The translations under genes were made by a program, and so were the position numbers. DNA of 64,000 bases, from assembly GCA_031407755.1 (NCBI GenBank), contig JANOIS010000164.1:6138-70137 (forward strand), in the 5' to 3' direction. Position 1 is the stretch's first letter. Every line of letters begins with the position of its first letter. Shown piece after piece: positions 13,072-15,654 of this stretch. This stretch comes from Chloroflexota bacterium. Lineage in GTDB: Bacteria; Chloroflexota; Limnocylindria; Limnocylindrales; CSP1-4. The notes beneath the pieces were generated by a model, which was not told the origin of the DNA, did no database searches, and saw nothing but the letters and a program-made list of their open reading frames with translations.

Positions 13072-15654
13072 TCAGACGGGGTCCTTGGCCAGGTGGCGCT
13101 GCATGGCTGCCTTGCGCGACAGGTTGACCCGGCCCTGGCGGTCGACTTCCAGCACGACCACCATGATCTCGTCGCCAACGGCCACGACATCCTCGACGGT
13201 CGGCACGTGGTAGTCGGCCAGCTCGCCGATGCGGACGAGGCCTTCCTTGCCCGGCAGGATCTCGACGAAGCAGCCGAAGCCCATGATCCGGGTGACCTTA
13301 CCCATGTACAGCGAGCCAACCTCGACCTCGCGGGTCAGGCTGTTGATCCAGTCGATCGCCTTGCGGGCGTTCTCGCCGGAGACGGCCGCGATCTCGACCG
13401 TGCCGTCGTCCTCGACGTTGATCTCCGTGGACGTCTCTTCCTGGATCTTGCGGATCATGGATCCACCCTTGCCGATGATCTCGCGGATCTTCTCGGGGTT
13501 GATCTTGATCGTGGTGATGCGGGGGGCGAAGTCGCTCATGTCCGAGCGTGCCTCGGGCATGACCTCGGCCATCTTGTCGAGGATCGTCAGACGGGCCGCG
13601 AGTGCCTGCTTGAGACCATCGCGGATGATCGCCTCGCTGATGCCCTGGACCTTGATGTCCATCTGGAGGGCGGTCACACCGTCCCGCGTGCCGGTCACCT
13701 TGAAGTCCATGTCACCGATGGAATCCTCCTTGCCGAGGATGTCCGTCAGGACGACGAACGTGCCGTCCGGCTCGCTGATCAGGCCCATCGCCGCGCCGGC
13801 GACCGGTGCCTTGATCGGCACACCGGCGTCCATCAGGGCGAGCGTGGAACCGCACGTCGAGGCCATCGAGGTTGACCCATTGGAGGTCACGCATTCACTG
13901 ACGAGCCGGATGACGTAGGGGAATTCCTCGTGGCTCGGCAGGACCGGGAGCAGGGCCCGCTCGGCGAGGTGGCCGTGGCCGATGTCGCGCCGGCTGGGCC
14001 CGCGCATCATCTTGTTCTCGCCGGTGCTGTAGGGCGGGAAGTTGTAGTGGTGCAGGTAGCGCTTCTCGGTCTCGGGGCTGATCGTATCGATCCGCTGGAC
14101 GTCCGATGACGACCCGAGGGTGGCCACGGTAAGCGCCTGGGTCTCGCCACGGGTGAACAGGCCGGAGCCGTGCGCCCGCGGGACAAGCCCGACCTCGACA
14201 GTGATGGGACGGATGTCCGTCAGGCCGCGGCCGTCGATGCGAATGCCCTCGTCGATGACGATCCGGCGGACCGTCTTCTTCTGGACCAGGTTGAACAGGT
14301 TCTTGCTGACGCGAGCCTCGCGCTTGGCCGCGTCGAGCAGCTTGTTGGTGTCGCCACCGGTCCGATTGGCACGGACGGCCTCGGCGATCGACTCACGCAG
14401 GGTGGAGATCCGGCCGGGCAGGTCGTTGGCGAACCAGAGCAGCAGGTTGGCCGTCGCCTCGGCGTCCGGCAGGGCGCGGTGGCCCTGGCTCAGCTCGACG
14501 CCAAAGAATCGGGCCAGGTCACCGAGCTTGTACGACTCGGCTCCGGGATAACCATCACGGGCGATGACCAGCGTGTCGAGGTAGGTTCCCGGCTTGAACC
14601 GGAAACCATCACCCTTGGCCTCTTCGATGAATCCGAGGTCGAAGCCCACGTTGTGACCGACGACGAGCGCGTCGCCGACGAAGGCCAGCAGCTTGTCGGC
14701 TGCCTCCCTGGGACTCGGGGCGCCCTTGACGTCCTTGTCCGTGATGCCGTGCATCTGGTTGCCGACGATCTTGCGGCCCGGGTTCACGAACGACGACCAG
14801 CGATCGACGATCTTGGTGCCCTTGATCTTGACCGCGGCGACCTCGACGAGGTCCGACATCTTTGGATCCGTGCCGGTCGTCTCGACATCGATGACGACGA
14901 GCTCGCGCTTGGCGTCCGTCGCCGAAGCGAACTCGAGGACGGAGTTGGTCGATGGCTCGATGTAGGGAAGCTTCTTGGCCTTGCCGAGGGCCTTCTGCAT
15001 CTCCTCCTGGAGCTCGACGATCGGTCGAAGGGAGCGGTGCCCGAACAGGATGGCCTCGGCCATGACGTCTTCCGGCAGGAGCTTGGCGCCCGCCTCGACC
15101 ATCATGATCGCGTCGCGGGTACCGGCCACGATCAGGTCAAGCTCGGAGTCCTTGAGCTGGCTGAACGTCGGGTTGACGACGAACTCGCCGTCGATCCGGC
15201 CGACACGCACGGAGGCGATCGGGCCGTTGAACGGGATCTCGCTGATCGATAGGGCCGCGGATGCGGCGATCGTGCCGACAACGTCCGGGAGGTTCTCCTG
15301 GTCTGTCGAGAGGACGGTGATCACGAGCTGGACGTCGTCCTTGTAGCCCTCGGGGAACAGCGGGCGGATCGGCCGGTCCGTCTGGCGGGCGGCCAGGATC
15401 GCGTTCTCGGACGGGCGCGCCTCGCGCTTGATGAAGCCGCCCGGGATCTTGCCCGCGGCGTACATCCGCTCCTCGAAATCGACCGTGAGCGGGAAGAAGT
15501 CGAGGCCGGGGCGCGGCTCCGACCGGTTGGCGGTGCCGAGCACCATGGTGTCACCGTAGCGAACGGTGACGGAGCCGCCGGCGAGGCGTGCCATCTTGCC
15601 GGTCTCGATGGTCAGTGTGCGGCCACCGACCTGCGTCTCGAATGTCTGAGACAA
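13072..15654 (-). CDS. pnp: Polynucleotide phosphorylase (PNPase) carrying an internal DEDDh exonuclease domain insertion; TTG start
   Basis: Standard PNPase parts are present:
- RNase PH core 1 at aa 1 to about 225
- core 2 (RIDGRGLTDIRPI, RRDIGHGHLAERAL, NGSTSMASTCGSTLALMDAGVPIKAPVAGAAMGL, EDSIGDMDFKVTGT)
- KH (GKGGSMIRKIQEET)
- S1 (GKVTRIMGFGCFVEILPGKEGLV)

The product is 860 aa versus about 700 aa because of the insert at about aa 246-415. A GGAGGA site lies 9 nt upstream of the TTG. Confidence 0.95.
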   Translation of the reverse strand: MSQTFETQVGGRTLTIETGKMARLAGGSVTVRYGDTMVLGTANRSEPRPGLDFFPLTVDFEERMYAAGKIPGGFIKREARPSENAILAARQTDRPIRPLFPEGYKDDVQLVITVLSTDQENLPDVVGTIAASAALSISEIPFNGPIASVRVGRIDGEFVVNPTFSQLKDSELDLIVAGTRDAIMMVEAGAKLLPEDVMAEAILFGHRSLRPIVELQEEMQKALGKAKKLPYIEPSTNSVLEFASATDAKRELVVIDVETTGTDPKMSDLVEVAAVKIKGTKIVDRWSSFVNPGRKIVGNQMHGITDKDVKGAPSPREAADKLLAFVGDALVVGHNVGFDLGFIEEAKGDGFRFKPGTYLDTLVIARDGYPGAESYKLGDLARFFGVELSQGHRALPDAEATANLLLWFANDLPGRISTLRESIAEAVRANRTGGDTNKLLDAAKREARVSKNLFNLVQKKTVRRIVIDEGIRIDGRGLTDIRPITVEVGLVPRAHGSGLFTRGETQALTVATLGSSSDVQRIDTISPETEKRYLHHYNFPPYSTGENKMMRGPSRRDIGHGHLAERALLPVLPSHEEFPYVIRLVSECVTSNGSTSMASTCGSTLALMDAGVPIKAPVAGAAMGLISEPDGTFVVLTDILGKEDSIGDMDFKVTGTRDGVTALQMDIKVQGISEAIIRDGLKQALAARLTILDKMAEVMPEARSDMSDFAPRITTIKINPEKIREIIGKGGSMIRKIQEETSTEINVEDDGTVEIAAVSGENARKAIDWINSLTREVEVGSLYMGKVTRIMGFGCFVEILPGKEGLVRIGELADYHVPTVEDVVAVGDEIMVVVLEVDRQGRVNLSRKAAMQRHLAKDPV
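14410..14920 (-). other. DnaQ/RNase T-like DEDDh 3'-5' exonuclease domain encoded in-frame inside pnp
   Basis: All three exonuclease motifs are present: ExoI VVIDVETTG (D256, E258), ExoII VVGHNVGFDLGFI (D339) and ExoIII HRALPDAEATANLL (H392, D397). They lie between the PNPase helical-domain segments ...LQEEMQKALGKAKKLPY... and ...NLFNLVQKKTVRRIVIDEGIRIDGR. Confidence 0.85.

Follow-up and report, generated by a model that had tools for sequence, protein, structure and literature searches.

Can polynucleotide phosphorylase (PNPase), among the most conserved and best studied of RNA-decay enzymes, carry a second, mechanistically different 3′-5′ exonuclease within its own chain? The question is raised by pnp in a 64,000-nucleotide stretch of Chloroflexota DNA (assembly GCA_031407755.1, contig JANOIS010000164.1), the whole of which we call the window. 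To our knowledge, the five-domain plan of PNPase has been regarded as unvarying, whether in bacteria or in human mitochondria: a first RNase PH-like core (PH1), an alpha-helical domain, a second, catalytic RNase PH-like core (PH2), a KH domain, and an S1 domain. The window's pnp product has all five in this order, and its helical domain is split by a DnaQ-like exonuclease domain of the DEDDh type.

A DEDDh domain splits the helical domain of PNPase

The pnp open reading frame (ORF) is a single unbroken frame, just as an earlier, sequence-only reading of this locus had described it, and has a TTG start. Along the product, Pfam matches run in the order RNase_PH, RNase_PH_C, RNase_T (PF00929), the C-terminal half of the helical domain, RNase_PH, RNase_PH_C, KH, and S1, with the helical C-terminal half (PF03726, aa 445-476, profile positions 49-80) falling below threshold (23.7 bits versus a gathering score of 24.6). 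The NCBIfam equivalog model for PNPase, TIGR03591, matches at 955 bits (cutoff, 525) in two stretches parted by the insert, and NF008805 matches at 952 bits (cutoff, 471). The exonuclease-family match on which the sequence-only reading had staked its claim for aa 246-415 is present: PF00929 aligns with aa 253-405 (E = 4.5e-28; 99.3 bits, cutoff 24) over its entire length (profile positions 1-164 of 164). That reading set the limits at 14410-14920, corresponding to aa 246-415; the domain proper occupies aa 250-410 (14425-14907).

We deleted aa 250-410 (161 residues) in silico and searched the resulting 699-aa construct against PNPases in the Protein Data Bank (PDB). The intact query aligned with Staphylococcus epidermidis PNPase (5yjj) in two blocks (query 3-226 and 454-851; 714 bits), whereas the deletion construct aligned with it in one colinear stretch (3-690 with 18-709; 725 bits) and was likewise colinear with the Escherichia coli enzyme (7ogk; 8-692 with 10-695). 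The insert enters near E. coli residue 253/254, the alignment being approximate in this poorly conserved region. The insertion is clean, and no part of PNPase has been lost; together with the Pfam order, this alignment bears out the claim that the PNPase parts are all present and colinear.

An AlphaFold2 model of the pnp product (mean predicted local distance difference test [pLDDT] score, 71; predicted template modeling [pTM] score, 0.67) gives aa 250-410 pLDDT values of 84-95 and the alpha/beta order of a DnaQ or RNase H-like fold: strands β1-3, a helix, β4, a helix, β5, and further helices. The helix that bears the ExoIII motif runs on into the linker as one 39-residue helix (aa 394-432). 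Pfam, NCBIfam, and PDB matches, the AlphaFold2 model, and the deletion alignment thus agree with the sequence-only reading that an intact DEDDh domain divides the helical linker into two halves. With the whole model as query, Foldseek returned only PNPases, and none of the solved PNPases among the PDB and Foldseek matches has such an insert. Canonical PNPases (E. coli 3cdi and 7ogk, S. epidermidis 5yjj, Caulobacter crescentus 4am3) share with the Limnocylindria protein the PH1-helical-PH2-KH-S1 order, the phosphate- and metal-binding residues, and the rpsO-pnp gene pair; they differ from it by the 161 extra residues, a whole DEDDh domain inside the helical domain.

Both catalytic centers are intact and conserved

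The three Exo motifs of the insert (Table 1) contain all five DEDDh residues, D256, E258, D339, H392, and D397, at the positions first read from the window. These residues are unchanged in all 55 species-level genes that we compared and are invariant in a 75-sequence alignment (A1) that reaches Limnocylindrus at ∼70% overall identity. The PH2 active site is also whole, as judged by alignment to E. coli 7ogk: it comprises R555/R556, the SNGSTSMA segment with phosphate-site residues S594-T595-S596, and D644, D650, and K652, the last three of which we take to be E. coli D486, D492, and K494. The GSTSMA phosphate site and the R555/R556, D644, D650, and K652 positions are invariant columns in A1. 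In PH1, alignment to 5yjj and 7ogk shows the channel loop GGFIKRE to be the counterpart of the FFRR loop of E. coli.

Table 1. Coordinates of pnp, its domains and motifs, and selected neighboring genes in the window
Feature	Coordinates	Strand	Evidence
pnp, 860-aa polynucleotide phosphorylase with internal DEDDh domain	13072..15654	-	TIGR03591, 955 bits vs 525
PH1, first RNase PH-like core, aa 1-209	15028..15654	-	Pfam RNase_PH + RNase_PH_C; alignment to 5yjj, 7ogk
Helical domain, N-part, aa 210-249 (model helices 210-223, 237-247)	14908..15027	-	AlphaFold2; deletion-construct alignment
Inserted DEDDh domain (DnaQ-like, PolC/DinG-type), aa 250-410	14425..14907	-	PF00929, NF005906, PolC/DinG models, 2p1j, pLDDT 84-95
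ExoI motif IDVETTG, aa 255-261, catalytic D256 + E258	14872..14892	-	Invariant in 55/55 species genes and A1
ExoII motif GHNVGFDLGF, aa 333-342, catalytic D339	14629..14658	-	D339 invariant
ExoIII motif HRALPDAEATANLL, aa 392-405, catalytic H392 + D397	14440..14481	-	H392, D397 invariant
Helical domain, C-part, aa 411-478 (model helices to 432, 436-447, 451-469)	14221..14424	-	PF03726, AlphaFold2, deletion-construct alignment
PH2, catalytic RNase PH-like core, aa 479-700	13555..14220	-	Alignment to E. coli 7ogk
KH domain, aa 711-771	13342..13524	-	Pfam KH_1, E = 1.9e-11
S1 domain, aa 777-848	13111..13326	-	Pfam S1, E = 6.7e-17
rpsO (ribosomal protein S15), directly upstream of pnp	15776..16051	-	TIGR00952, E = 1.4e-35
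DHH/DHHA1 protein, between infB and truB	19465-20571	-	Weak NrnA match, 77 bits vs cutoff 350

The insert is old, under selection, and clade-wide in Limnocylindria

Median pairwise ratios of nonsynonymous to synonymous substitution (dN/dS) were 0.19 for the DEDDh insert, 0.13 for PH1, 0.09 for PH2, 0.12 for KH-S1, and 0.28-0.30 for the two linker segments; the insert is under purifying selection. Its junctions are fixed across relatives, with indels of just 1-2 residues, and its pairwise identity follows that of the PNPase core (Pearson, 0.76; Spearman, 0.63). From these comparisons, the insert goes back to a single, old acquisition, an ancestral in-frame insertion between helices of the alpha-helical linker. 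We saw no compositional break and found no inverted repeats at the insert. An exact 12-nucleotide direct repeat, CTCGCGCTTGGC (encoding AKRE), brackets it at 14902-14913 and 14317-14328; we rejected this repeat as an insertion footprint and attribute it to chance, because only 2 of 55 species have the two copies in identical form and such a repeat also turns up in 16% of triplet shuffles.

How widespread the insert might be was a question that the sequence-only reading had raised. In species-representative genomes, 362 stretches matched, of which we fetched the best 80. Nearly all of these 80 loci come from Chloroflexota or Limnocylindrales metagenome-assembled genomes (MAGs) from soil, groundwater, and freshwater, and several insert-bearing loci lie on long-read contigs of 1-3 Mb. 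A full-length, single in-frame match was obtained in 54 of the 80; in the others, a contig end or scaffold gap truncates the locus or, in long-read assemblies, the gene has a single frameshift. Among database proteins, PF00929 accompanies the PNPase domains in every one of the 120 best relatives of the window protein (89-100% identity), and those that are named belong to Candidatus Limnocylindrales (NCBI lineage Chloroflexota; Candidatus Limnocylindria; Candidatus Limnocylindrales). A full-length, distant member from Candidatus Limnocylindrus (P0125; 57% insert identity) likewise has PF00929 in all of its 120 best relatives. Altogether, the architecture occurs in >240 protein clusters (ENA, JGI, NCBI, and Logan) and at least 80 species-level genomes, with the named ones in Limnocylindrales or Limnocylindrus: the insert-bearing PNPase is clade-wide in Candidatus Limnocylindria and vertically inherited. 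The automatic database names of these proteins are of two kinds, PNPase and "DNA polymerase III epsilon subunit family exonuclease"; the latter name, given by JGI to many of these genes, is an annotation problem.

This distribution bears on whether the joining of a dnaQ-like gene to pnp could be an artifact of chimeric assembly, of a frameshift, or of a pseudogene, an explanation that we regard as wholly improbable. Single frameshifts do break pnp in six related long-read (MFD) assemblies (L004, L025, L029, L030, L039, and L042), which could be taken in its favor, but these seem to be errors of sequencing or consensus, not pseudogenes. The same in-frame junctions recur in the 54 full-length genes, which come from independent species-level genomes, and in the >240 clusters; base composition is even across the junctions; and selection has acted on the insert. 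The sequence-only reading had named a misjoin among the findings that would overturn it, and chimeric assembly is excluded because hundreds of independent assemblies show the same architecture.

Several database entries needed correction. Two proteins that appeared to be more divergent insert-bearing PNPases (P0156 and P0135; 48-50% identity) proved to be frameshift-garbled translations, which may have the same cause as the six long-read frameshifts; such errors inflate seeming divergence in protein databases. Real insert divergence extends to ∼55-59% identity with the window, and the A1 sequences that are farthest apart share 48%. In one locus (L061), what looked like 61 extra residues in the S1 domain is a run of N. 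Four loci with a Limnocylindria-type pnp (L034, L062, L079, and L022; 73-89% insert identity) are titled Eisenbacteria, Dormiibacterota, Actinomycetota, or Anaerolineaceae MAGs; they are probably mis-binned or mislabelled contigs rather than cases of horizontal transfer.

The insert belongs to the PolC/DinG branch of DnaQ-like exonucleases

The best NCBIfam models for the insert are PRK07883 DEDD exonuclease (146 bits), followed by the PolC and DinG exonuclease models, and its best PDB matches by sequence are the Thermotoga maritima PolC exonuclease (2p1j; E = 1.2e-23), another PolC (9qpc), and Staphylococcus aureus DinG (8zef; E = 8e-20). RNase T (2f96) reaches only E = 7e-4, compared to ∼1e-23 for the PolC exonuclease, and neither RNase T nor Orn models are among the 25 best NCBIfam matches. 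We therefore rejected RNase T (rnt) and oligoribonuclease (orn) proper as identities of the insert, its closest similarity being to the PolC exonuclease. Likewise rejected was the DNA polymerase III epsilon subunit (dnaQ) proper, with scores of 80.7 versus a cutoff of 222.7 for TIGR01406 and 65.7 versus 71.5 for TIGR00573; because these cutoffs are not reached, the JGI name can be read as a superfamily-level label only. By sequence similarity, then, the insert is placed in the PolC/DinG/epsilon/PRK07883 branch of DnaQ-like exonucleases, not with RNase T or Orn; DNA is the main substrate of the characterized enzymes of this branch. The label "DnaQ/RNase T-like" in the sequence-only reading holds as the name of the Pfam family but not as a statement of kinship with RNase T.

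In an exhaustive search of 1.84 billion representatives, every checked match above ∼50% identity was, in whole or as a fragment, an insert-bearing PNPase. The closest non-PNPase relatives are 43-48% identical: they include stand-alone or N-terminal DEDDh proteins, proteins combining FAN1_HTH, VRR_NUC, and DEDDh, a triple DEDDh with GIY-YIG and UVR, PolC, DinG, and a RecJ with an insert. Judging from these relatives, the insert is a DNA-type DnaQ-like domain of a kind that recurs fused to, or nested in, other nucleic-acid enzymes. The internal-domain candidates among the top 150 representatives included no PNPase with an independent DEDDh insertion from another lineage; they are RecJ proteins, PolC fragments, VRR-NUC fusions, or BRCT fusions.

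PolC, whose proofreading domain (2p1j, 9qpc) is the closest sequence match, offers a parallel in that its DEDDh domain is also nested inside another domain, PHP. We saw the Pfam order PHP, RNase_T, PHP/pol3_alpha in PolC relatives, and structures of PolC indicate that the PHP-nested exonuclease is its native arrangement. The hosts differ: that of PolC is a replicative DNA polymerase, with a mismatched DNA primer end as substrate, whereas that of the Limnocylindria domain is an RNA phosphorylase. DinG (S. aureus 8zef; Bacillus subtilis) belongs to the same DEDDh branch and joins the exonuclease to a single-strand-tracking motor, and its characterized members break down RNA as well as ssDNA; in contrast to the internal pnp insert, the DinG exonuclease is a terminal fusion to a helicase, with a role in DNA repair and R-loop removal. 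Nesting in PolC (PHP), RecJ, and PNPase suggests a PolC-type DEDDh module that serves repeatedly as an insertable cassette.

The same search turned up other arrangements of this module. One is a 746-aa RecJ (P0208; DHH, DHHA1, and RecJ_OB) with a similar DEDDh domain at aa 220-374, between DHH and DHHA1, which would join 5′-3′ and 3′-5′ single-strand exonucleases in one polypeptide. Two scanned proteins (P0172 and P0176) are bacterial FAN1-like nucleases (FAN1_HTH plus VRR_NUC) whose C-terminal DEDDh domain shares 43-46% identity with the PNPase insert; about a dozen proteins of ∼720 aa (P0179, P0191, P0200, P0212, and others) are grouped with them by length and domain position only. Tandem DEDDh proteins (P0132, P0144, and P0153) comprise one with three copies plus GIY-YIG and UVR, one PolC with two, and one DinG with two.

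Possible functions of the insert-bearing PNPase

In E. coli PNPase, the helical domain is dynamic and lies on the face of the torus opposite S1/KH, and it forms part of a pore, apart from the central channel, that reaches the active site and probably passes nucleoside diphosphates (NDPs) and phosphate (PMC2723993). We infer that the insert-bearing PNPase also forms a trimer and, by analogy, that its three DEDDh domains would crown the exit face of the ring. The sequence-only reading had pictured three hydrolytic sites around the ring; these would not be on the RNA-entry side, because the helical domain occupies the face opposite KH/S1 (PMC2723993).

The reading that we prefer, and consider probable if only by a little, is that the protein is a bifunctional phosphorolytic and hydrolytic 3′-5′ exonuclease acting on RNA. 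Both catalytic centers being intact, a trimer would hold three phosphorolytic sites inside the ring and three metal-dependent hydrolytic DEDDh sites opposite the KH/S1 cap, beside the side pore lined by the helical domain. The DEDDh domain would act as a second 3′-5′ exonuclease tethered to PNPase, phosphate independent and irreversible. KH and S1 would raise the local RNA concentration, and the DEDDh sites might attack those 3′ ends with which PNPase copes badly, or might convert the short limit oligonucleotides that PNPase releases, and short 3′ overhangs beside structure, into nucleoside monophosphates (NMPs). An RNA substrate is plausible because the exonuclease of S. aureus DinG degrades RNA as well as single-stranded DNA (ssDNA) (PMC12345164).

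Several considerations weigh against this reading. Catalysis by the insert, and RNA as its substrate, are predictions from sequence. So too are the uses that the sequence-only reading proposed, namely, completing the breakdown of short oligonucleotides, removing structured ends, and working on DNA ends. By sequence similarity, its nearest relatives, at 43-48% identity, are all DNA enzymes (PolC, DinG, PRK07883 DEDD/GIY-YIG, and FAN1-like VRR-NUC proteins), and the B. subtilis DinG exonuclease favors ssDNA over single-stranded RNA and clears R-loops (PMC12525004). The insert cannot attack a 3′ end held in the phosphorolytic site unless the RNA threads the ring or leaves first. As to the orientation of the DEDDh sites, the AlphaFold2 model is of a monomer from a shallow alignment, with the mean pLDDT given above. 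Finally, an NrnA-like DHH/DHHA1 gene is conserved nearby, which makes a dedicated nanoRNase role for the insert less necessary.

Some of these points speak for the main rival reading, a 3′-5′ exonuclease directed at DNA or RNA-DNA hybrids that would strengthen the known moonlighting of PNPase in repairing DNA and removing R-loops; such an enzyme would shorten ssDNA 3′ tails where DNA is broken or gapped, or would break down the RNA strand of R-loops, with KH/S1 holding the single strand. We consider this somewhat unlikely, although the top family and structure matches (PRK07883 at 146 bits, PolC, DinG, and epsilon) are DNA enzymes, as are the nearest non-PNPase relatives enumerated above, from the FAN1_HTH-VRR_NUC-DEDDh and triple DEDDh-GIY-YIG-UVR proteins to PolC, DinG, and RecJ with an insert, and although the preference of B. 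subtilis DinG for ssDNA and its removal of R-loops (PMC12525004) fit such a role. PNPase itself acts in DNA repair in B. subtilis and E. coli, and the B. subtilis enzyme degrades ssDNA in the 3′-5′ direction (PMC2709576, PMC3241651, PMC5379764). Set against this, the host is a housekeeping RNA-decay enzyme encoded amid ribosomal and RNA-processing genes, pnp shows no specific linkage to DNA-repair genes, DEDDh domains seldom discriminate strictly between sugars, and the insert has no sequence feature that marks DNA specificity. Alternatively, the insert could be retained as a nucleic-acid-binding, oligomerization, or regulatory module without meaningful catalysis, for example, by gating the NDP/phosphate side pore. 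That the helical host domain affects PNPase activity and lines this pore (PMC2723993) would suit such a role, as would the predicted status of DEDDh catalysis, yet we judge it very unlikely: the catalytic residues, together with the surrounding ExoI-III motifs, are invariant clade-wide at insert identities down to 48%, which disfavors a noncatalytic role; inactive DEDD domains normally lose their acidic residues; and dN/dS of the insert is near that of the catalytic core.

Gene neighborhood of pnp

In the window, the genes are arranged nusA-infB-DHH-truB-rpsO-pnp...rnj-ftsK. Among the 48 related loci with full flanks, rpsO lies upstream of pnp on the same strand in every one, and truB and the DHH gene lie upstream in 45. 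The constant position of rpsO identifies pnp, by neighborhood, as the orthologous housekeeping copy. From its sequence, the DHH/DHHA1 protein is a candidate nanoRNase or pAp phosphatase (Table 1). RNase J (5550-7232, minus strand; 690 bits to the RNase J1 model) adjoins ftsK ∼6 kb downstream of pnp, so that two major RNA-decay nucleases are encoded within one 10-kb stretch. Between rpsO and truB, the window has a plus-strand gene for a PduO-type cob(I)yrinic acid a,c-diamide adenosyltransferase and one for a DUF3291 protein (16237-17469); this spacer is variable, the PduO-type gene being found in 22 of the 48 loci and DUF3291 in 11. Farther away, a 1,533-aa frame without a family match (54735-59336, plus strand) is not a gene but an antisense shadow ORF, typical of high-GC DNA, that overlies recG (54576-56819, minus strand) and a DAK2/FakA-like gene (56829-59219, minus strand). 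We found no Rfam families or tRNAs in the window.

Significance and comparison with known systems

The sequence-only reading did not recall this architecture as described, which fits our own search: in full-text literature searches and a targeted reading of an RNase H-like superfamily survey, no account of a DEDD domain inserted into PNPase came to light. A PNPase with an internal DEDDh domain thus appears to be undescribed in the literature, though hundreds of examples exist in databases. A whole class, Limnocylindria, which is abundant in soils and lakes, has put a mechanistically different 3′-5′ nuclease into PNPase and has maintained that nuclease by strong selection. No earlier natural case is known to us in which one PNPase ring would unite phosphorolytic with hydrolytic exonuclease sites, and the helical domain would offer a permissive insertion site usable for engineering.

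The eukaryotic exosome combines an S1/KH cap and an RNase PH-type ring (Exo-9) with the hydrolytic 3′-5′ exonucleases Rrp44 and Rrp6; Rrp6 belongs to the DEDD family, and Rrp44 is placed across the ring from the cap. The exosome ring itself lacks catalytic activity, and its nucleases, of the DEDDy and RNB families, are subunits of their own; the Limnocylindria PNPase instead has intact ring sites and, in one chain with them, a DEDDh nuclease. The two are alike by analogy, not by homology of arrangement. It is doubtful, in our estimate, that the Limnocylindria enzyme is a self-contained exosome-like machine, in which RNA captured by KH/S1 would be either phosphorolyzed in the ring or passed to the three DEDDh sites opposite. 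Were this true, the enzyme could switch between a phosphate-dependent, reversible, energy-conserving mode that yields NDPs and a phosphate-independent, irreversible mode that yields NMPs, which might be adaptive in phosphate-poor soils and lakes, and a bacterial enzyme would have converged, within one polypeptide, on the exosome's logic of cap, ring, and hydrolase.

A bacterial counterpart is the RNA degradosome of C. crescentus, in which RNase E is reported to be a scaffold for PNPase and RNase D, so that PNPase is physically coupled to a DEDD-family hydrolytic 3′-5′ exoribonuclease there as well (PMC4245959). The Caulobacter link is noncovalent, through RNase E, and RNase D is of the DEDDy type and has HRDC domains. 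Next to the exosome and this degradosome, both noncovalent assemblies, the Limnocylindria PNPase may provide a simple model for why cells pair PH-ring enzymes with hydrolytic nucleases.

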